The notes beneath the pieces were generated by a model that saw only the letters and a program-made list of their open reading frames with translations, did not search any database and was not told the origin of the DNA. The position numbers were made by a program, and so were the translations under genes. A DNA stretch of 64,000 nt from an uncultured bacterium (GTDB lineage Bacteria; Actinomycetota; Acidimicrobiia; Acidimicrobiales; VFJN01), in contig CAVQVM010000011.1 of assembly GCA_963717085.1 (NCBI GenBank), forward strand, positions 233,108 to 297,107. The letters are read 5' to 3'. Positions 16,584-64,000 of the stretch are shown piece after piece (position 1 is the first letter of the stretch; the number at the start of each line of letters is the position of its first letter).

Positions 16584-17756
16584 ATGACGGCTCAGGTAGG
16601 CACGGTCACCTATCCCCGGGATGGGTTCGGTGCCCCGAAGGACCGGCAGGGGCACGCGACCGGGTCGGTGGGTCTGCCGGCGGGTACGGAGGTCTTCTCC
16701 GCGGACGACCACATCTCGCTCGCCGAGGACATCTTCTACGAGCGGTTCCCGGACTCGCTGAAGGAAGAGGCACCCCGCGTCATCTACGACGACGGGGCCT
16801 GGACGCTGGGCTTCGGCGGCAAGTCGCTCCTCCCGAGGGAGTTCAACGCGGTGCTGATGCAGTACGACCCGCTGGCTGGTTCCAGCACCAGCGACATCGG
16901 GGCCCGCCTCGGCGAGCTGGAGTCGGACGGCATCCACCGGGAGCTCGCCTTCCCGAACGCCATGCTCGCCCTGATGGGGTGGCCCGACAAGGCCATCCGG
17001 GAGCGCTGCTTTCGCATCTACAACGAGCACATCGCCGAGCTGCAGGAACAGTCGAACGGCCGCTTCCATGGCGTCGGGATGGTCAACTGGTGGGACGGCG
17101 AGGGGTGCCGCCGGACGCTGGCCGAGATGAAGGACCTGGGCCTGAAGACGTTCTGGCTGCCCCTCAAGCCCGGGGCAGGCGAAGACGACAAGCCGATCGA
17201 CTACAACAGCCCCGCCATGTACCCGGTGTGGGAGGCCATCGAGGAGAGTGGCCTCCCGGTGGCGCACCACATCGGCGAGGCTCCGCTGTCCTCGCCGTGC
17301 CGGGACAACAGCATCCTCGTCGGCATGGTGCACAACGTGGCGCCGTTCCGCGAGATGTTCGGCCGCTACGTGTTCGGCGGGATCCTCGATCGGCACCCCG
17401 GCATCACCGTGGGCTGGTTCGAGGGCGGCATCAATTGGGTCCCGGCGGCGATCCAGGACGCGGAGCACCTCTACGCCTCGCTGCAGCACATGGCCGACCA
17501 CGGGCTCGACCACGATGTCGCCCACTACTGGCACCAGCACATGTACGCGTCGTTCATGGTCGACCCGCTCGGGCTGGAGATGATCGACCGGATCGGGCTC
17601 GAGCGGGTGATGTGGTCGTCGGACTACCCGCACAACGAGAGCACCTTCGGCTACTCGGAGCGGTCGCTGGCCAGCGTGGTCGGGGCCGTCGGGCCCGAGG
17701 ACGCCGTCAAGATCGTGAGCACGAACGTCACGACGTTCCTCGGCCTCGACACCTGA
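16584..17756 (+). CDS. Amidohydrolase-2 family protein (ACMSD/LigW-like metal hydrolase/decarboxylase fold)
   Basis: SADDHISL near the N-terminus, AHHIGE, and a C-terminal MWSSDYPHNEST motif. Confidence 0.85.
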   Translation: MTAQVGTVTYPRDGFGAPKDRQGHATGSVGLPAGTEVFSADDHISLAEDIFYERFPDSLKEEAPRVIYDDGAWTLGFGGKSLLPREFNAVLMQYDPLAGSSTSDIGARLGELESDGIHRELAFPNAMLALMGWPDKAIRERCFRIYNEHIAELQEQSNGRFHGVGMVNWWDGEGCRRTLAEMKDLGLKTFWLPLKPGAGEDDKPIDYNSPAMYPVWEAIEESGLPVAHHIGEAPLSSPCRDNSILVGMVHNVAPFREMFGRYVFGGILDRHPGITVGWFEGGINWVPAAIQDAEHLYASLQHMADHGLDHDVAHYWHQHMYASFMVDPLGLEMIDRIGLERVMWSSDYPHNESTFGYSERSLASVVGAVGPEDAVKIVSTNVTTFLGLDT

Positions 17757-30955: not shown

Positions 30956-31290
30956 GGTGATCCTCCCTCACTCTGGATCGCATCGGGTGCTTCGGTGGTT
31001 CCGGTGGGGGGTTCAGCGTCGAGCTCGGCGAGGAGCTCGGCGCCCGACACGACGCGCTCGGCGAAGTGTCGATGCATCCACGCCAGGTGGTCGTGACGGC
31101 TGTGCATGATCCGCAACGTGTCCCAGTTGGGGAACGTCTGCTGGAGCACCCACCGCTCCATCAGGCGGGGATCGACCTCGTAGACGTGCTCGAAGCGGGT
31201 GATCGCCACGTCGCTCGCCCGCGCCGCCGGCGGCGGCGTCGTCTGCTCGGCGTGGCGGTAGCCGATCGGGCCGTTCGGGCCGGCCATCAC
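30952..31290 (-). CDS. Hypothetical His-rich small protein
   Basis: 112 aa, ATGA-coupled on both sides inside the operon. Contains MHSRHDHLAWMHRHF. No family recognised. Confidence 0.55.
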   Translation of the reverse strand: MMAGPNGPIGYRHAEQTTPPPAARASDVAITRFEHVYEVDPRLMERWVLQQTFPNWDTLRIMHSRHDHLAWMHRHFAERVVSGAELLAELDAEPPTGTTEAPDAIQSEGGSP

Positions 31291-32795
31291 CGACCACCTC
31301 CCTCATACGCCCTGTCGAGGCCGTACTTGCCGGGGTTCATGATGTTGTTCGGGTCGAGCAACCGCTTGACGTCGAGCATCACGCCGTAGCCGCGCCCGAG
31401 CTCCTCGGGCACCAGATCGACCTCGCCCTCCCGGCACGACCCGTGGCAGGCACTGATCGAGCCGCGGTAGCGCAGCGTCACCGCTGCGATGTCCCGCTTG
31501 GCCTGCACCCACAGCCGCCATGCCTCCTCACCGAGCTGCTGCTCCCAGATCCCGACGTCGATCTCGGTGAGGTAGTCGATGCCGGTCGCCCCGTTGGTGT
31601 AGGCGAACATCCCCCAGTCGTCGAAGACGTCGGTGCGCCGACGCAGCTCGGTGACAATGGCGTGCCACTCCCGCGTGACGGCGGGCAGGTTGGTGTGGCT
31701 GATCGAGGCGTCCTCGCAGTGCCAGCTCATCGGCACGACCTGACCCGAGCGGGTGCGACCGTGCAGCGGCGTCGCGTAGCGGTCGTGGCGCGCGGCCCAG
31801 TCGCCCTCGGAGATCTCGTCGCCGAGGTAGCGTCCGCCGTGCTCGCGGGCGATGCGCAGGAGGCGCTTGCCGCCGACGCGCACCTCGTCCTCCCACCCGT
31901 ACAGCGCCGTGCACACCAGCGCCTTCACGTCCGATGGCTGGGGGATGTAGGCCTCGTCATCGCGGCGCAGGTAGGCGACCTTCCACTCGTCGAACAGCAC
32001 GGCCCCGGCGAAGGTGGCGACGCCGGCCCGGGCGAGCGCGCCGACGCAGCGGTGGGCGCTGTCGTAGTCACTGAAGGCGAAGAACGGCGACAGCTCCGCC
32101 TCCGGCTTCGGGAACAGCTTGAGCGTCGCCCGGGTGGCGATCCCGAGCGTGCCCTGGTGACCCATGAACAGGTGCTTGAGCTGGTAGCCGCTCGAGCTGC
32201 GGGTGATGTTTCCGCCGATGCCGTCGCCGACGTGCATCACCTCGCCCGTCGGCAGGACGTGGTCGAAGCTGAGCACGAGGTCGCGGGTGTGCCCGTAGCG
32301 CGACCCGATCAGCGACCAGCCGCTCGTGCCGATCCGCCCCCCGACGAGGGAGCACGGGTACGACGCCGGGTTGTCCGGGTAGATCAGCCCGTGCCGGCCG
32401 AGGACCTCGTTGAGCTTGAGCATGTTGATGCCGACGCCGACGGTGCAGGTGCGGTTGTCGAGGTCGATCTCGTGGATCTGGTTCATCCGCTTGACGTCGA
32501 CGAGGATCCCGTGGCGCAGCGGCACGGCGCCGTCGGTCAGCCCCGTGCCGCCGTCGCGGGGCACGATCGGCACGGCCAGCTCGTTGGCGAGGCGGACGAC
32601 TGTGACGACGTCGTCGGTCGACTCGGGCAGCACGACGACGTCGGGGACGTGCTCGGACCACCGGTGCACCGGGAACGGGGCGGGCGTTCTCGCCCGGTTG
32701 AATCGGTCGGCCTTCGATGTCAGCACCTGGTCGGCGCGCAGGACGCCCTGCAGCCGGCTGACGAGGTGGTCGAGAGCGTCGGCGGTGAGGCTCAT
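31287..32795 (-). CDS. FAD-binding oxidoreductase (GlcD / FAD_binding_4 family)
   Basis: VVLPESTDDVVTVVRLANELAVPIVPRDGGTGLTDGAVPLRHGILVDVKRMNQI. 502 aa. Confidence 0.88.
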   Translation of the reverse strand: MSLTADALDHLVSRLQGVLRADQVLTSKADRFNRARTPAPFPVHRWSEHVPDVVVLPESTDDVVTVVRLANELAVPIVPRDGGTGLTDGAVPLRHGILVDVKRMNQIHEIDLDNRTCTVGVGINMLKLNEVLGRHGLIYPDNPASYPCSLVGGRIGTSGWSLIGSRYGHTRDLVLSFDHVLPTGEVMHVGDGIGGNITRSSSGYQLKHLFMGHQGTLGIATRATLKLFPKPEAELSPFFAFSDYDSAHRCVGALARAGVATFAGAVLFDEWKVAYLRRDDEAYIPQPSDVKALVCTALYGWEDEVRVGGKRLLRIAREHGGRYLGDEISEGDWAARHDRYATPLHGRTRSGQVVPMSWHCEDASISHTNLPAVTREWHAIVTELRRRTDVFDDWGMFAYTNGATGIDYLTEIDVGIWEQQLGEEAWRLWVQAKRDIAAVTLRYRGSISACHGSCREGEVDLVPEELGRGYGVMLDVKRLLDPNNIMNPGKYGLDRAYEGGGR

Positions 32796-32926
32796 TGCTT
32801 CCCGCTCTTGCTGCTTCGCAGCGGGCCGCTCGGGCTGTCGACGTGTTTTCTCCCGCTCCCACGGCCGCTCGGGCCGGGCTCGCTCTCACCTTGCTTCCCC
32901 GTCACCCTCGACGGACGCTCGCTCAT
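32792..32926 (-). repeat. Intercistronic dispersed repeat (copy A) containing a 44-codon mini-ORF ATGA-coupled to both neighbours
   Basis: The Fe-S gene TGA (32925-32923) overlaps ATG 32926. The mini-ORF (MSERPSRVTGKQGESEPGPSGRGSGRKHVDSPSGPLRSSKSGKQ) has a TGA (32794-32792) that overlaps the FAD-oxidase ATG 32795. Its 3' 45 nt are 43/45 identical to copy B. Confidence 0.8.
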
Positions 32927-34263
32927 CGCCCGGTGCCCGCGTCGCCGCCGACGTCGATCCCCAGCGACTCGGCGAGCAGCTCGTGGAGGTCGACGACGTC
33001 GATGCTCGCCTCGGCGCCCGCCGCGGTGAGCGGGCGCTCGGACCACGGGCAGGCGCTGACGAGCGTGTCGACGTCGAGCGTTGCGGCGTGCTCGATGCGC
33101 CGGGCGCTGATCGCAGCAGTCAGCTCCGGCTTCTCGATGGCCAGCCCGCCGCCGGCACCCGAGCAGTACGACCACTGGGTGACCCGGTCGACGTCGTGGA
33201 AGGTCAGCCCGGGGATGGCCCGCAGGATCTCGCGCGGCTCGCGCCAGATCCCCTTGCGCTTGTTCAGCCGGCACGGGTCGTGATACGTGACGGTGCGCTC
33301 GATCGGGACGTCGGGGCGCAGCCGGCCGTCGCCCAGCATCTCGGCGAACAGCTCGACGACGAGCACGACCTCGATGTCGAAGTCGTCGCCGAAGTAGCGC
33401 GGGTAGTCCTCGGTGAAGCTGATGTAGTCGTGGGGGTCGAGCACGAGCACCCGGCGGGCGCCAGTGGCGCGCCAATCGGCGAGGTTGTGCTCGGCGAAGC
33501 GGCGGGCCTGGTCGGTGTAGCCCATCTCGGCTGCCGGGCCGCCACAGCACCACTGCTCTGCCATCAGCCCGAACTCGTAGCCGGCGCGCTGGAGGATCTG
33601 GGCCACCGCCCGCGGCACCGAGGTGCGGTAGAAAGCGGCCTCGCAGTCGACGAACAGGATCGACTCGCCGCCGATCGGCAGGTCGAGGCCGTCGGCCCAG
33701 TCGCGGACGTGCTCCTGGCTCACCGGCGTGTCGCCAAGCACGGGCTCGTGGGTTCGCTCGCCGGTCGACGCGTTCCAGCGCTGCCACGCCGGCTGGTGGA
33801 CGCCCTCGTCGACGGCGAGCGCGCGCATCGCCTTGACGACGTCGACGGTACGGGTGCGGAAGCGGTAGAAGTCCCCGGTGAACAGCGTGTTCGGGCAGCG
33901 GAGCTCGCACGCCCCGCACTGCGTGCAGTTGACGTAGTCGGCGGCCACGTCGGCCACGTCGAGGTGGCCGCGCTCCATCGCCACGACGTTGGCGTGGAAC
34001 GCCGTCGGCGACCACGACTCGTTGCGCGTGACCTGCACGACCGGGCACACCTCGCGGCAGAACTTGTGGCCGGAGGAGAAGCAGTTGTAGGAGCCGTTGT
34101 GCCACTCTGCGAGGAACTCCACCGTGCGCTCGTCGCGTCCCGGCGCCGCCGGCGGGGCGACCGCCACGGTGTCCGGCTGGGCGTCCCACGGCTCGCCGCC
34201 GTCCCCCGATCCGGGCGTGTACGGCTCGGCCAACGACCGTCGCTGGTCGTCCGTCTCCGTCAT
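32923..34263 (-). CDS. (Fe-S)-binding protein, GlcF/HdrD-like with CCG domains
   Basis: Ferredoxin-type CTQCGACELRCPN plus Cys-rich CCG-type motifs (FVDCEAAFY, YHDPCRL). I prefer ATG 34263 (MTETDDQ) over the TTG at 34287. Confidence 0.85.
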   Translation of the reverse strand: MTETDDQRRSLAEPYTPGSGDGGEPWDAQPDTVAVAPPAAPGRDERTVEFLAEWHNGSYNCFSSGHKFCREVCPVVQVTRNESWSPTAFHANVVAMERGHLDVADVAADYVNCTQCGACELRCPNTLFTGDFYRFRTRTVDVVKAMRALAVDEGVHQPAWQRWNASTGERTHEPVLGDTPVSQEHVRDWADGLDLPIGGESILFVDCEAAFYRTSVPRAVAQILQRAGYEFGLMAEQWCCGGPAAEMGYTDQARRFAEHNLADWRATGARRVLVLDPHDYISFTEDYPRYFGDDFDIEVVLVVELFAEMLGDGRLRPDVPIERTVTYHDPCRLNKRKGIWREPREILRAIPGLTFHDVDRVTQWSYCSGAGGGLAIEKPELTAAISARRIEHAATLDVDTLVSACPWSERPLTAAGAEASIDVVDLHELLAESLGIDVGGDAGTGR

Positions 34264-34558
34264 GTGCCCCGAACCCCTCGAGAGCAAGACGAGCCGACCG
34301 AGCGCCAGCCCGCGCCCGCCACGGTAGCCCGTCGTCCGTGGCGGCGCGATGGCCTCCTACGGCGGTTCGGGTCGGCACTTGTGGCCCCGCCTAAACGGGG
34401 ATCGGGGTCACGGCGCCCGGAGGTCAGGCGCCACTCCCCACGCCGAGGTGACCTACAAGCCGGGATCCAGTGGTCGCGGTGCCGCTGTCAGTTGCTTCGT
34501 GCCCGCAGATAGCGGAACAGAAACCGCCAGGAACCGGCCGAACGGGCCGCCGGGTGTA

Positions 34559-51778: not shown

Positions 51779-52849
51779 TCACGGCCGGCTCCACGTGGAC
51801 TCCCAGGCGCCGAGCTCGGACTCGAATGCGGCCCGGAGCTCGGGCGGGGCGAACGACGCCGACATCGACCGCCGCTGCAGCGCCGCCAGGCCCCCCGCGT
51901 CGACCCCGTGGTGCTGGGTCACCAGGGCGAGCTCCCGCTCGAGCGTGGTCGAGAAGTAGCCGGGGTCGTCGGTGTTCACCGACACGTCCATCCCCAGGCC
52001 GATCATCTCGCCGATCGGATGATCCGCGATCGACGGTGCGGTGACGCCGAGCAGCGCATTGGAAGTGGGCGAGACCTCGAGCGGGACCTGTTCGTCGACC
52101 AGGCGCTGCGCCACCGATCGGTCCTCGAGCGCACGCACGCCATGGCCGATCCGTACAGCGCGAAGGCTGTCGAGGGCGCCGGTCACGCTCGCCGGCCCCG
52201 CGGCCTCGCCGGCGTGCACCACCGCCGGGACGCCGGCCGCCCGGGCGCGGGCGAACGTGTCGGCGTAGAGCTCGGGCGGCCACTCCGCCTCCGGCCCGCC
52301 CAGGCCCATCGCCACAGCCCCAACCGGTGCATTTGCGCCCGCCAGCAGCGAGGCGGTCAGGTGGTCGTCGGGAAGCTCCTGGCCTCGGGAGATGTCCAGG
52401 ATCCAGCGGACCTCGACGCCGCGGGCCGCAGCCCGCCGCTGGGCCTCGTCGAGGGCCGCGGCGTAGGCGGCCTCACCCCAGCCCCGGGTGCGGACGTGAT
52501 TGACCGGCGTGCTCGTGACCTCCGCCCACCGGACGCGCTGGCGCGCCAGCTCCTCGGTAAGCGCGTCGGCGCAGCTGACCAGATCGTCGGGCGTGCGCAG
52601 GACCGCGAGGCCAGCGCGGAACAGCTCGATGAAGTGGAGGAAGTCGCGGAACTGGTACCGCTTCGCCAGCTCGGCCTCGGACTCGACCCCGAGGTCGACA
52701 CCGTTGCGCTCGGCCAGCGCCAGCACCGTCGACGGCCGCATCGACCCCTCGAGGTGGACGTGGAGCTCGACCTTCGGGAGGGCGGCGATGGCCTCGGCGG
52801 GGACGGGGCCGGCGGGATCAGGGCCGGCGGCCATCACTAGTGGACGCAC
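51779..52849 (-). CDS. add: Adenosine deaminase
   Basis: PKVELHVHLEGS, HAGE, SVNTDDPGYFSTTLERE motifs. The start may be an internal Met. Confidence 0.9.
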   Translation of the reverse strand: MRPLVMAAGPDPAGPVPAEAIAALPKVELHVHLEGSMRPSTVLALAERNGVDLGVESEAELAKRYQFRDFLHFIELFRAGLAVLRTPDDLVSCADALTEELARQRVRWAEVTSTPVNHVRTRGWGEAAYAAALDEAQRRAAARGVEVRWILDISRGQELPDDHLTASLLAGANAPVGAVAMGLGGPEAEWPPELYADTFARARAAGVPAVVHAGEAAGPASVTGALDSLRAVRIGHGVRALEDRSVAQRLVDEQVPLEVSPTSNALLGVTAPSIADHPIGEMIGLGMDVSVNTDDPGYFSTTLERELALVTQHHGVDAGGLAALQRRSMSASFAPPELRAAFESELGAWESTWSRP

Positions 52850-53063
52850 CGTGGGAGGCCTCCAACACGCCGCCGCACCCCCGGCACCGGGCCCGCCATC
52901 CCGTCGGCGTGACCTGCACGGTCAGCCAGCGGCCGCAGTCCACGCAGAAGCGCCACGGCTCGTAGGGGCCGGAGCAACCCGGGCACTCCTCCACGGGAGC
53001 ACCGCACCCCGAGCAGTGGCGCCAGTGGGCCGGGGCGGGGAGAGTCGAGCGCGCAGGTGCCAA
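52818..53063 (-). CDS. Small zinc-ribbon protein (four CxxC pairs)
   Basis: CSGC, CPGC, CVDC, CRGC. High third-position GC. The only in-frame start is TTG 53063, 9 nt after an AGGAG. Overlaps the add 5' end. Confidence 0.5.
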   Translation of the reverse strand: MAPARSTLPAPAHWRHCSGCGAPVEECPGCSGPYEPWRFCVDCGRWLTVQVTPTGWRARCRGCGGVLEASHGASTSDGRRP

Positions 53064-53262
53064 CTCAGATCACTCCTGAGGCCGAGCGCAGGCGAGGCCG
53101 GCCCGAGCGGCCGTGGGAGCGGGAGGCACACGCCGAAGCCCGAGCGGCCGTGGGAGCGGAAGGCGCATGCCGAAGCCCGAGCGGCCCGGCGCCGGAGGCG
53201 CCAAGAGCGGGAAACGCCGCGGACGCTCGACGCACCTTCTCTAGCCCTCCCACTCAGATCAC
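53063..53262 (+). repeat. Dispersed repeat copy C (inverted relative to host genes) with 37-bp sub-repeats, flanked by an 11-bp direct repeat
   Basis: The + strand carries GCCCGAGCGGCCGTGGGAGCGGGAGG..., matching the minus strand of copy A. Sub-repeats 53101-53137 and 53138-53174 are 34/37 identical. ACTCAGATCAC occurs at 53063-53073 and 53252-53262. Confidence 0.75.
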
Positions 53263-59777: not shown

Positions 59778-61301
59778 TCACCGTGCGGTCGCCTCCGGTG
59801 CCACCGTTGCCGCCATTGCGGCCATTGCGGCGCTCGCCGTCGTCGGGATCGATCGTGGTCGCGTCCACATCGGTGGCTTCGAGGTCCCTGGCGCGGTCGT
59901 AAGGAGGAGGCGGGGGCCGCGGGGCGGCGTTGGTGCGGGCGCCGAGAGTTCCGGAGGCGCGGGCGTGGCGACGTGATCGCCGGCGCCACCCTCACCCTTG
60001 CCACCGCGGCGGCGGGCCTTGACGGCCGCCCGGATGCGGCGGACCACGGGGTTCGGGCGCTGCGCGGGGAGCTGGCCCCGGCCGAGCGCCCGGAGCCCGG
60101 CAACGTAGGAGAACAGTGCGAACCCGCCGCACGCAGCCACCACCAGGAAGCCGATCTGCACGGGGATCGTCACGATCACCGGGATGAACGCCCCGACCAC
60201 CCAGGTGAGCTGGAAGCGGGTCTCGAACTTGGCGAACGACCGCCCCCGGTTGGCGTCCGGGGCGTCGCGCTGCACCACCGAGTCGAACGCCAGCTTGGCG
60301 CTGCTGGCCGAGACCCCGACGCACGCAGCCAGCGTGGTCGCCGCCGCGAGGCCGCCGGTCCACGCAGCCAGCACCGCCGCCACCGTGGTGATGCCGAGCA
60401 CGATCTGCACGATCCGCTCCTCGGGGACGCCGGCCCGCCGCATCGCCGGGGCCACCAGCGCGCCGAGCAGCGACCCCACGCCGCTGGCCGCCAGCACGAG
60501 GCCGAACTCCCAGGCCGCGGCGCCCTGGCTGCGCAGGTAGAAGGCGATCAGGAAGGTGAGGAAGCCGACGATGCCGCGCATGAGCCCCATCGCCGACGCC
60601 GCCAGCACGATCCCGCCGCCCCGCAGCTCGTTGCGTTCCGTCTGTGACGTGTCGTCTTCGGCGACCTGGGTCGGGGGGATCCGGACGCCGAGCACGGCGG
60701 CCACCGTGCAGGCGACGGCCGCAAGGATCAGCACCGCCTGGCTCCCCGCGATGGTGGCCGCGATGCCGGCCGGGACGGCCGCGGCGAAGGTCACGACACC
60801 CGACAGGAACGACAGTTTCGCGTTCGCCTCCACCAGCTCGTCGTCGGACCGCACGACCGTGGGCACGATGGCCGACTTGGCCACGTGGTAGCTCTTCGAC
60901 AGCACCAGCACGGCGAACGCCTCGGGGAACAGCAGCAGGCTGTCGATGTCGCGGATCATCAGGATGGCGAGCACCGCCCGTAGAGCGTTGGCGGCGATCA
61001 CCATCCAGCGACGCCCGCCCTTGACGCGGTCGAGCGTGGGACCGATCAGCGGCGCCACCACCGCGAAGGGCGCCATCGTCAGCGCCAGGTAGAGCGCCAC
61101 GCGGGAGCGGGCCGCGTCAGGATCGATGGATAGGAACAGCGAGTCGGCCAGGGCCAGCGTGATCAGCGTGTCGCCGGCCACCGTTGCGGCATGGGTGCGG
61201 GCCAACCGGGTGAACGGGGTGACGACGAACGCCCCTGCGCCCGTGGGCTTGGGCTGGCCCAGCGGCTGCCACCCGCCGTTGCCGGCGTTAGTCGCCATCA
61301 C
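59778..61301 (-). CDS. MFS transporter with long basic/Pro-rich C-terminal tail
   Basis: About 12 hydrophobic helices (LALADSLFLSIDPDAARSRVALYLALTMAPFAVVAPLIGPTLDR...), then a low-complexity tail. Confidence 0.8.
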   Translation of the reverse strand: MMATNAGNGGWQPLGQPKPTGAGAFVVTPFTRLARTHAATVAGDTLITLALADSLFLSIDPDAARSRVALYLALTMAPFAVVAPLIGPTLDRVKGGRRWMVIAANALRAVLAILMIRDIDSLLLFPEAFAVLVLSKSYHVAKSAIVPTVVRSDDELVEANAKLSFLSGVVTFAAAVPAGIAATIAGSQAVLILAAVACTVAAVLGVRIPPTQVAEDDTSQTERNELRGGGIVLAASAMGLMRGIVGFLTFLIAFYLRSQGAAAWEFGLVLAASGVGSLLGALVAPAMRRAGVPEERIVQIVLGITTVAAVLAAWTGGLAAATTLAACVGVSASSAKLAFDSVVQRDAPDANRGRSFAKFETRFQLTWVVGAFIPVIVTIPVQIGFLVVAACGGFALFSYVAGLRALGRGQLPAQRPNPVVRRIRAAVKARRRGGKGEGGAGDHVATPAPPELSAPAPTPPRGPRLLLTTAPGTSKPPMWTRPRSIPTTASAAMAAMAATVAPEATAR

Positions 61302-61425
61302 GAGCGAGGGTAACGGAGGGTGGAGACGACCCGAGGCAATAACGAACGCCGCCGAAGAGTCGAGGCAATGGCGAACGGTCTTCGTTCGTCATTGCCTCGC
61401 CCTCAGCCCACCGTTCGCGATTGCC

Positions 61426-62148
61426 TCATGCAGTCGCCGCCGTCTTCGGCGTGTCGTACTTGTAGCCCAGGCCGCGGATGGTGACGATGCGGGTGGGTAC
61501 CGACGGGTCCCGCTCGACCTTGGCCCGCAGCCGCTTGATGTGCACGTCGAGGGTCTTGGTGTCGCCGACGTAGTCGGTGCCCCACACCCGGTCGATGAGG
61601 GTCTCGCGGGGTAGCACCCGCCCAGCGTTCGTCAGGAGGATCTCGAGCAGCTCGAACTCCTTGAGCGGGAGGCGCACCTGCTCGCCCCGGATCTCCACCT
61701 CGTGGCGCTCGGGGTCGAGTCGGACATCGCCCACCTGGAGCACGTCGCCGGACGCGGCCCGCGTCCCCGCCTCCGGGGGCCGCCGACGGAGCACCGCCCG
61801 CATGCGCGCCACCAGCTCGCGCAGGCGATAGGGCTTGGTGACGTAGTCGTCGGCACCGACCTCCAGGCCGACCACCGTGTCGATCTCCGACCCCTTGGCG
61901 GTGACCATGATGATGGGCACCGCCGAGCGCCGCCGCAGCTCGCGGCACACGTCCACCCCCGAGACCTTGGGGAGCATCACGTCGAGCAGCACCAGGTCGG
62001 GCTTCACGACGTCGAACAGGTCGAGTGCCTCCGCGCCGTCGTGCGCCACCTGCACACGGAAGCCCTCGCGCTTGAGGCCCACGGTGAGCGCCTCGACGAA
62101 GCTGTCCTCGTCCTCGACGAGGAACACGGTGGCCTCGGGAGTACTCAT
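61426..62148 (-). CDS. regX3: OmpR-family response regulator, RegX3 orthologue
   Basis: ATG 62148 (MSTPEATVFLVEDED...). LLDVMLP, IIMVTAKGSEIDTVVGLEVGADDYVTKPY, LIDRVWGTDYVGDTKTLDVHIKRLRAKVE. Closely parallels the mycobacterial RegX3 sequence as I recall it. Confidence 0.9.
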   Translation of the reverse strand: MSTPEATVFLVEDEDSFVEALTVGLKREGFRVQVAHDGAEALDLFDVVKPDLVLLDVMLPKVSGVDVCRELRRRSAVPIIMVTAKGSEIDTVVGLEVGADDYVTKPYRLRELVARMRAVLRRRPPEAGTRAASGDVLQVGDVRLDPERHEVEIRGEQVRLPLKEFELLEILLTNAGRVLPRETLIDRVWGTDYVGDTKTLDVHIKRLRAKVERDPSVPTRIVTIRGLGYKYDTPKTAATA

Positions 62149-62287
62149 TGCTCCCCGCTCATGCTGCTTCGCAGCGGGCCGCTCGGGCTCCGGCGTGTGA
62201 TCTTCCGCTCTTGCGTGTCGCACGTCACCCTGACGCGGCGGGCCGCTCGGGCCCAAGACTCACTCTCTCGCCCTTCGGGACGCTCGT

Positions 62288-62291
<4 letters not shown>
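62145..62291 (-). repeat. Intercistronic dispersed repeat (copy B) in the senX3-regX3 spacer, with a 48-codon ATGA-coupled mini-ORF
   Basis: The kinase TGA (62290-62288) overlaps ATG 62291. The mini-ORF (MNERPEGRESESWARAARRVRVTCDTQERKITRRSPSGPLRSSMSGEQ) has a TGA (62147-62145) that overlaps regX3 ATG 62148. Confidence 0.8.
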
Positions 62292-63540
<1,249 letters not shown>

Positions 63541-63544
<4 letters not shown>

Positions 63545-63826
63545 GAGCGGAGCTCCTGACCGGTCGACCGTGTGACCGCCAGGGAGCCGGGCGACGATGG
63601 GGTCCGGGGGCGCAGCCCCCGCGGGAGCACGGTCATGAGCGGAGCTCCTGACCGGTCGACCGTGTGACCGCCAGGGAGCCGGGCGACGATGGGGTCCGGG
63701 GGCGCAGCCCCCGCGGGAGCACGGTCATGAGCGGAGCTCCTGACCGGTCGACCGTGCGACCGCCAGGGAGCCGGGCGACGATGGGGTCCGGGGGCGCAGC
63801 CCCCGCGGGAGCACGGTCATGAGCGG
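63541..63826 (-). repeat. 92-bp tandem repeat, 3 full copies plus a 10-bp partial fourth, including the senX3 RBS and start codon
   Basis: Copies at 63541-63632, 63633-63724 (identical to the first) and 63725-63816 (one substitution). TCATGAGCGG recurs at 63817. Confidence 0.95.
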
Positions 63827-63851
63827 GACCCGGGCCCCCCTCGTGGTGCCA

Positions 63852-64000
63852 TCACGCGGTTCTCCTGTCCTCCGTGGGCACGACGTCGAGGACGCCGGCC
63901 ACGTCGACGCGCTCGTCGATGCCGATGCCGCTGAGGGCGGTCACCGACACGAAACCCTGAGCGACGATGGCGGTGTCCGAGTCCGGCGGCAGGTCCGTGT
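63852..64000 (-). CDS. 3' end of a gene, SurE (5'/3'-nucleotidase)-like C-terminus; 5' part outside window
   Basis: The minus frame reads ...TDLPPDSDTAIVAQGFVSVTALSGIGIDERVDVAGVLDVVPTEDRRTA-stop. SDTAIVAQGFVSVTAL resembles the SurE TDxxAVxxGYVSITPL motif. Confidence 0.4.
   Translation of the reverse strand, partial: TDLPPDSDTAIVAQGFVSVTALSGIGIDERVDVAGVLDVVPTEDRRTA

Follow-up and report, generated by a model that had tools for sequence, protein, structure and literature searches.

The window analysed here, a stretch of 64,000 nucleotides from an uncultured Acidimicrobiales bacterium (contig CAVQVM010000011.1), carries on its minus strand a senX3-like histidine kinase gene followed by a regX3-like response regulator gene, and the subject of this work is the 147-nt element that separates them (Table 1). 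The stop codon of the senX3-like open reading frame (ORF; TGA at 62290-62288) overlaps an ATG (62291-62289) from which a mini-ORF of 48 codons begins, and the TGA of this mini-ORF (62147-62145) in turn overlaps the ATG of the regX3-like gene (62148-62146). From ATG to ATG the distance across the spacer is 143 nt, a length of the form 3n+2. An earlier reading of the letters by a model without database searches, here called the sequence-only reading, had described a spacer ATGA-joined to both genes around a 48-codon ORF; all its coordinates are correct, the peptide is exactly the one it gave, and the 3n+2 distance was confirmed. Its statement that the 3' 45 nt reappear in a second element, with 43 of 45 positions identical (32836-32792), also stands (blastn-short, E = 5e-16). 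A 26-mer is common to the two copies, the expectation in shuffled sequence being 0.00.

Orthologues of the kinase carry the JGI name SenX3 and the NCBI label 'Acidimicrobiales bacterium', and a SenX3 protein identical at every residue to that of the window is encoded on a metagenome contig (L001; ENA ERZ25039531 contig_31947). This contig represents a near-identical strain and not the window itself, showing scattered substitutions and diverged flanks when compared with window positions 60000-64000; its element differs by a single substitution at window position 62196 (ACA to ACG), synonymous in the mini-ORF. The 48-amino-acid ORF is also called by the gene caller on the near-identical contig. 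On the minus strand the senX3-like ORF ends in ...GGAGGCGGGATGA; the strong Shine-Dalgarno sequence now lies 5' of the mini-ORF, and regX3 is left with GGGGAG only, 2 nt from its ATG. Pfam gave no match for either window mini-ORF (48 codons here, 44 in the second copy). A search of the whole window against Rfam 15 at the gathering threshold returned tRNA only, and an E-value scan of 62100-62340 gave a chance-level match only (E = 0.74, 17 bits vs a gathering score of 112).

Table 1. Positions of the element, its parts, the adjoining genes and the other copies in the window
Feature	Position	Strand	Remark
Element, 147-nt ATGA-to-ATGA unit with 48-codon mini-ORF	62145..62291	-	Between senX3-like and regX3-like genes
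5' junction ATGA, senX3 stop/mini-ORF start	62288..62291	-	AAGGAGG 4 nt upstream, inside senX3 (CCAAGGAGGCGGGATGAAC)
Head hairpin HP0, CGTCC-C(GAA)G-GGCG	62269..62282	-	3' of head box ACGAGCGTCC
Core 12-mer GCCCGAGCGGCC, copy 1	62241..62252	-	Hairpin GGGCC-CGAGC-GGCCC with flanking bases
Internal module, hairpin GCGTCA-GGG-TGACGT then internal GAGCGG tail box (AAGAGCGGAAG)	62202..62236	-	
Core 12-mer, copy 2	62177..62188	-	
Hairpin HP2, GCTGC-GAA-GCAGC	62163..62175	-	Covaries across the family
Tail ATGAGCGGGGAGCA, Shine-Dalgarno-like purine box	62149..62162	-	Directly 5' of regX3 start
3' junction ATGA, mini-ORF stop/regX3 start	62145..62148	-	regX3 start confirmed by orthologue N-termini
senX3-like histidine kinase gene, 418 amino acids	62288..63544	-	
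regX3-like response regulator gene, 240 amino acids	61426..62148	-	60% identity to M. tuberculosis RegX3
Second copy (32k), 135-nt ATGA-to-ATGA unit with 44-codon mini-ORF	32792..32926	-	131 nt ATG to ATG
Cores of 32k copy	32863-32874 and 32824-32835	-	
HP2 of 32k copy	32810-32822	-	
Tail of 32k copy	32796-32809	-	
Third copy (53k), 178 nt, hairpin GGCGCC-GGA-GGCGCC	53074..53251	+	Three cores (53101, 53138, 53175)
11-bp direct repeat ACTCAGATCAC flanking 53k copy	53063..53073 and 53252..53262		Contains bioB stop codon

Modular anatomy and copies in the window

Read in the sense of the neighbouring genes, a unit of the family is composed of a head, at least one module and a tail. The head consists of NTGA, the box GCGAGCGTCC and a variable hairpin (HP0), whose stem differs among family members (e.g. 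CCG-GAA-CGG, CCGTC-GAGGGT-GACGG and GGCAGG-TAC-CCTGCC). Each module brings the conserved hairpin GCCCGAGCGGCC, a 12-mer that folds with flanking G and C bases as GGCC-CGAGC-GGCC, followed by either a GNA hairpin or a second GAGCGG box. The variable hairpin of the module is perfect, with a stem of 4-6 bp and a C(GNA)G triloop. The tail, the Shine-Dalgarno-like AAGAGCGGGAAGCA, ends exactly at the NTGA that holds the downstream start codon (consensus: tail, then ATGA), and its GAG lies 12 nt 5' of the start codon in 29 of 44 copies. Within the element at the senX3-regX3 junction (the 62k copy) the core 12-mer is read in two different frames, and the internal module recurs at an unrelated locus, L034, of another metagenome-assembled genome (MAG). 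Locus L034 had been tried as an orthologous senX3-regX3 spacer and was rejected; it precedes a different response regulator and is therefore a dispersed copy.

The variable hairpin was found in 48 distinct versions, 39 of them perfectly complementary vs 8% after shuffling, and 19 different 5' stem arms were counted for HP2, flipped stems included. In a gap-free, tool-checked alignment the helix is 94.7% paired and four of its five pairs are changed on both sides. The covariation score reaches 0.25, vs 0.08 in shuffles, and none of 500 shuffles attained the observed value.

The core 12-mer occurs seven times in the window, confined to the 62k, 32k and 53k loci, and a profile built from family members detected no further copy in the 64 kb beyond these three. 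The 32k copy is ATGA-joined at both ends, to a CCG/4Fe-4S gene (32923-34287) on one side and to an FAD-oxidase gene (31287-32795) on the other; its mini-ORF peptide starts with MSERP and ends in SPSGPLRSSKSGKQ, as in the 62k copy. At two metagenome loci (L204 and L236) mini-ORFs of 31 and 44 codons stand 5' of a 502-codon ORF, the length of the gene downstream of the 32k copy. The 53k copy runs antisense to the two adjoining genes, both on the minus strand: bioB (53254-) and a bsaP-like gene for a double-zinc-ribbon protein (52818-53063). The direct repeats around it are 189 nt apart (3 x 63), and in the relative L120 bioB and the bsaP-like gene abut (ATCTGATG), without an insert. A 62-codon ORF on the minus strand (53065-53253) spans this antisense copy from a GTG that immediately follows the TGA of bioB as far as the duplicated stop codon; we give it little weight, a rough and uncomputed estimate of its chance occurrence being about 1 in 10.

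Distribution, orientation and reading phase

Two collections were scanned for further copies. In GTDB, with one genome per species, we searched for two cores 23-53 nt apart and at least 114 stretches matched; in JGI metagenomes the pattern comprised head plus core, the tail being left out of it, and at least 120 stretches were obtained. Except where a lower bound is given, the counts in this section refer to the matches listed. We set aside about 27 of 120 genome arrays, and likewise 63 of 128 matches in the metagenomes, as chance matches or unrelated repeats. At least 89 GTDB arrays carry the tail box, the remainder being chance matches or 9-nt repeats, and at least 65 metagenome copies have the NTGA head; together with the three window copies these figures bear out the earlier claim of a dispersed repeat. 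The GTDB stretches come overwhelmingly from Acidimicrobiales/Acidimicrobiia MAGs, the carriers including Ca. Aldehydirespirator, Microthrixaceae and Ca. Poriferisodalis. Because the array periods in the genomes range from 27 to 65 nt, the repeat is to be seen as a superfamily. The family is widespread in Acidimicrobiia and apparently undescribed: no account of it was found in the searchable literature (12-mer, 'MIRU-like', Acidimicrobiia repeats), the coverage of which is incomplete and gives no proof of absence. Plasmid and phage collections gave no match to the consensus 81-mer.

Several kinds of match lie outside the stop/start-coupled units. All 25 matches to the two-core pattern on viral contigs (IMG/VR, L244-L268) were rejected as family members, being 9-nt collagen-like repeats. 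In Streptomyces and Terrabacter (L009, L010, L040, L057) the 12-mer stands in unrelated collagen-like repeats of 9-nt period or in other simple repeats, and therefore the 12-mer alone is not diagnostic. Arrays with periods of 27-30 nt (GCCCGAGCGGCC-CTCTGAGCGGGG...) were seen at six loci (L005, L059, L061, L092, L096, L074) within long open frames running on from the upstream gene, which suggests in-frame peptide repeats inside proteins, as with the palindromic elements of Rickettsia. In Ca. Aldehydirespirator and related MAGs (L006, L022, L027, L043, L089, L097 and others) there are tandem arrays of 2-7 units with periods of 43-45 nt (GCCCGAGCGGCCCGTGAGCGCAGCGAACAAGAGCGGGAAGCAC); these often have another head (GAGGCCGAGC..GCGAGGCC), are out of phase with any ORF and lie mostly upstream of same-strand genes.

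Gene strand was assigned from coding-frame calls on 240-nt flanks, which replaced stop-to-stop ORFs, too noisy in DNA of 70% GC; a downstream ORF was counted as coding-like if its GC content at third codon positions (GC3) was above 0.85. In the genome arrays the downstream gene is on the strand of the element in 64 cases vs 6 and the upstream gene in 49 vs 7, and orientation relative to genes is about 90% sense; the sequence-only reading had named the position between same-strand genes as a point to check. The first position of the head, in the at least 65 metagenome copies, is A in 42, G in 13, T in 6 and C in 4-5, which places a start codon there in about 93%. For 60 heads with a start codon we followed the mini-ORF to the downstream gene. 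It ends on NTGA, TAATG or TGATG overlapping the downstream start in 43, some of which use two to four consecutive mini-ORFs; in 16 it is fused in frame to the downstream ORF, and a single one is broken. Thus 59 of the 60, from a sample blind to the tail, are chained or fused to the downstream gene, where a free phase would give equal thirds. The chained mini-ORFs have 23-65 codons and about 20 different lengths, all in phase.

About half of the copies have no upstream gene ending at the head, and because of this the coupling to the downstream start, and not that to an upstream stop, is the conserved feature of the family. The earlier proposal is upheld in all parts that could be tested, with two shifts of emphasis: the overlap of stop and start with the downstream gene is found in the 43 chained copies, the 16 fused ones (about a quarter) running in frame into that gene, and the upstream overlap is missing in about half. 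Its further expectation, that the mini-ORFs are not broken by stops in most copies, agrees with the single broken case. Of 49 arrays in the wider superfamily that stand downstream of a same-strand gene, full chaining is seen in only 12.

The orthologous junction and the comparison with known repeats

Junctions were compared at 12 senX3-regX3 loci, with SenX3 identities of 77-100%. Five loci (L120, L121, L269, L270, L271) have an empty junction (...AAGGAGGCCGGATGACC...) with a bare ATGA overlap, of the kind that the sequence-only reading had named for comparison, and at these sites AAGGAGG..GGATGA serves regX3 directly. The other seven are filled with inserts of 143, 131, 77, 77, 77, 70 and 47 nt, six of which are 3n+2; ATGA stands on both sides of the filled sites and only once at the empty ones. 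The comparison shows that the ancestral senX3-regX3 junction was a plain ATGA overlap, the element lying between two copies of that ATGA. Identical SenX3 proteins (P0001) are accompanied by different inserts, 131 nt in L116 vs 77 nt in L117 and L118, and in L116, an orthologue of 96% identity, a different hairpin module replaces the internal module of the window. On the SenX3 tree the filled loci fall in two separate clades, each with one or more empty sisters, a pattern that implies at least two gains or several precise losses. The 47-nt insert, that of L272 (11258-11300), is a different ATGA-to-ATGA sequence (3n+2), with a 15-codon ORF and a CCGTCGACGG palindrome and without the core 12-mer, which may be a degenerate copy or a separate subfamily. 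In L122 a weak profile match to the head half (17520-17582, E = 0.003), just upstream of and into the moaE start, may be a decayed copy.

To our knowledge, the only repeats described since 1997 as being built of stop/start-coupled mini-ORFs are the mycobacterial interspersed repetitive units (MIRU), reportedly introduced by Supply et al. in that year. As reference we used the M. tuberculosis senX3-regX3 locus (CP012506.2), whose junction holds three 77-bp MIRU units, each bounded by ATGA. The likeness in architecture is extensive. Both families consist of small, GC-rich units of about 40-150 nt that lie at operon junctions in the direction of the genes, and the MIRU mini-ORF starts over the upstream stop and stops over the downstream start (ATGA, -4), as in the 62k and 32k copies. 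In both, unit lengths are 3n+2 with 77 nt as the commonest, whole units occur in tandem (three of 77 bp in M. tuberculosis, two of 77 nt in L149; L020, L079 and L088 are chained tandems as well), and copy number or length is polymorphic between strains, as in variable number tandem repeats (VNTR). Further points in common are empty orthologous sites, direct repeats of 4 nt, a purine-rich stretch resembling a Shine-Dalgarno sequence some 10 nt 5' of the second ATGA, and occupation of the senX3-regX3 junction. The MIRU properties used for this comparison are confirmed by reviews (PMC3184786, PMC12548453).

The differences lie in sequence, host and construction. In local alignments the 77-bp MIRU scores 13-16 against five family members, at or below the shuffle mean of 15-16.5, whereas family members score 60-92 against one another; there is no detectable sequence similarity, and the hosts are Acidimicrobiia, not Mycobacterium. 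Unlike MIRU, the family is assembled from a head, n modules and a tail, and it has the conserved 12-mer hairpin beside GNA-triloop hairpins that covary; about one in four of the listed copies is an in-frame N-terminal fusion and about half are leader ORFs without an upstream gene, and it is part of a wider superfamily with non-coding arrays of 27-65-nt period. On these comparisons the family is an independent one, with MIRU architecture but no apparent MIRU homology, as the sequence-only reading had proposed. That both families occupy this operon position is most simply explained by repeated use of ATGA junctions and is not taken for a sign of homology. A number of public gene models for M. 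tuberculosis RegX3 (P0121-P0130) are N-terminally extended to 245-347 amino acids, being read back through MIRUs, and the same annotation artefact is likely for in-frame Acidimicrobiia copies.

Three other repeat classes share single traits with the family. The BOX elements (boxA-boxBn-boxC) scattered near gene starts in Streptococcus pneumoniae have predicted hairpins. They too have conserved end modules around a variable number of internal modules; unlike the family they have no coupled mini-ORF, come from an unrelated low-GC host and are, by description, unrelated in sequence. The repetitive extragenic palindromic sequences and bacterial interspersed mosaic elements (REP/BIME), with their REP-associated tyrosine transposases (RAYT), are, like the family, short GC-rich hairpin repeats in operon spacers; they are co-transcribed with the genes and are thought to be mobilised as single-stranded DNA hairpins. 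They form clusters of alternating orientation, hold no ORF and usually follow stop codons, whereas our family is about 90% sense and its element ends on a start codon; among the matches listed, units within arrays are all in direct orientation and alternating clusters of REP type were not seen. Rickettsia palindromic elements resemble the family in being small repeats tolerated inside translated sequence (compare the 16 fused copies out of 60), but they insert within genes, form no stop/start-coupled cassettes and are unrelated in sequence and host.

Interpretation and rival explanations

Considering the anatomy, the reading phase and the junctions together, we regard the spacer as a real and non-random feature, with unusually clear evidence at the level of the family, and think it probable that it is one copy of a modular small interspersed repeat family of Acidimicrobiia and that its mini-ORF relays translation. 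A translational relay is the most likely function of the mini-ORF, and we infer it in the following form. Ribosomes finishing senX3, or loading at the AAGGAGG in its 3' end that originally served regX3, would start at the ATG of the element; they would read through its 48 codons, so that the hairpins are melted and the RNA of the spacer stays covered, and would then terminate at the TGA overlapping the regX3 ATG and re-initiate at regX3. With such a relay the insertion would leave RegX3 synthesis coupled to SenX3 synthesis. The peptide is then a by-product, the constraint falling on reading phase, nucleic-acid hairpins and tail. As to spread, the short end repeats (ATGA, and 11 bp at the 53k copy), the empty orthologous sites and the polymorphism in module number suggest that the element is mobile but non-autonomous and that it varies, in addition, by VNTR-like gain and loss of modules.

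Several observations weigh against this reading or narrow it. The relay presupposes co-transcription, a translated mini-ORF and re-initiation, each of which is inferred, and the gene context comes from a GC3-based heuristic instead of a gene finder. The copies are related, and the phase counts are therefore not independent events; phase regularity could partly descend from a 3n+2 master copy, without locus-by-locus selection. Among the listed arrays that follow a same-strand gene, 23 of 49 are plain spacers without a start codon over the stop of that gene, and units with periods of 43-47 nt are unable to stay in phase; the relay design is therefore a trait of one subfamily and not of the whole superfamily. 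The junction of L122 (11257-11327) holds the sole filled allele that is out of phase (70 nt, 3n+1), with its 3' coupling broken, and may be a real exception or a long-read homopolymer indel (GGGAACC vs GGGGAGCA). Whole-element folding is no better than that of shuffled sequence (z = -0.9 to +0.4), because of which thermodynamic stability is no evidence here and local covariation alone counts. Concerning mobility, no transposase or mobilising function was found, RAYT not having been sought. [quoted passage not shown]

Selection might instead act on structure in the RNA or DNA, with the ORF incidental: the element could stabilise mRNA, serve as a processing site, bind a protein or form single-stranded DNA hairpins of REP type. 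The strong covariation of the hairpins speaks for it, as do the GAGCGG boxes, conserved and recurring at fixed spacing, and the many listed superfamily arrays that are plainly intergenic and out of phase; C(GNA)G triloops are also the type of loop that closes DNA mini-hairpins of very high stability, e.g. d(GCGAAGC). We regard it as unlikely as the whole explanation, since it leaves unaccounted for the start codon in the great majority of heads, the near-constant arrival of the mini-ORFs on or into the downstream start across so many lengths, and the 3n+2 form of all but one junction allele. The two readings are compatible, and both can be true. Very little probability attaches to the mini-ORF encoding a functional small protein co-expressed with the two-component system. 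The ORF is open, a good Shine-Dalgarno sequence lies 5' of it, and many copies share an N-terminus M[SN]ERP and a C-terminus SPSGPLRSS.SG.Q. These recurring ends are, however, the translated head and tail of a DNA repeat found before unrelated genes. The peptide is not the selected product, because the core does not keep to one frame, stem changes that compensate each other replace amino acids, strains of 96% identity carry different middle modules, lengths run from 15 to 65 codons, the ORF is absent altogether in the empty-site relatives, and Pfam holds no match.

Descent of the element from a common actinobacterial ancestor, as a true homologue of MIRU, is suggested by the same operon junction, the ATGA-to-ATGA design and the same commonest unit length. 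We hold it to be highly improbable: the alignment scores stay at the level of shuffled sequence, several Acidimicrobiales relatives are empty, and in MIRU-free Mycolicibacterium regX3 starts (ATGACC) 8 nt after the senX3 stop, a short spacer with neither overlap nor insert. The empty sites and the insert-free Mycolicibacterium make an ancestral insertion unlikely. Least credible of all is a purely local tandem repeat made by replication slippage, neither dispersed nor mobile. The change in module number beside an identical SenX3 (131 vs 77 nt) is what slippage would produce, but near-identical heads, modules and tails stand at unrelated positions both within the window and across many genomes, and the junction was apparently filled twice independently; slippage accounts for the variation in length and not for the origin.

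A bolder extension of the relay reading, which we put forward as doubtful, is that these are mobile DNAs homing to start codons and stop-start junctions as single-stranded DNA hairpins (the C-GNA-G triloops together with the conserved GCCCGAGCGGCC hairpin) by means of a putative enzyme, invisible to translation, that the host uses module number as a heritable control of the downstream:upstream protein ratio (e.g. RegX3:SenX3), and that MIRUs are convergent. If this were true, the element's own Shine-Dalgarno sequence, start and stop would be what makes the insertion translationally invisible. The coupled mini-ORF repeat now has a second family, unrelated in sequence, in a class of Actinomycetota different from that of MIRU, which suggests that the coupled design is a general solution for inserting DNA into tight operons without breaking translation. 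In the annotation of Acidimicrobiia MAGs the elements give rise to small ORFs that are spurious and to proteins artificially extended at the N-terminus. They are possible VNTR-type markers for typing strains of uncultured Acidimicrobiia from soil, sludge and sponges, and they offer natural compact cassettes for translational coupling in high-GC hosts.

On the other side of regX3, its spacer to the MFS gene contains four exact boxes of the form GAGGCAAT-NN-CGAACG (61333-61427), two per strand and facing, which overlap the stop codon of regX3. The rest of the window has none, against 0.5 expected, and the boxes could be operator sites or a terminator-like palindrome.

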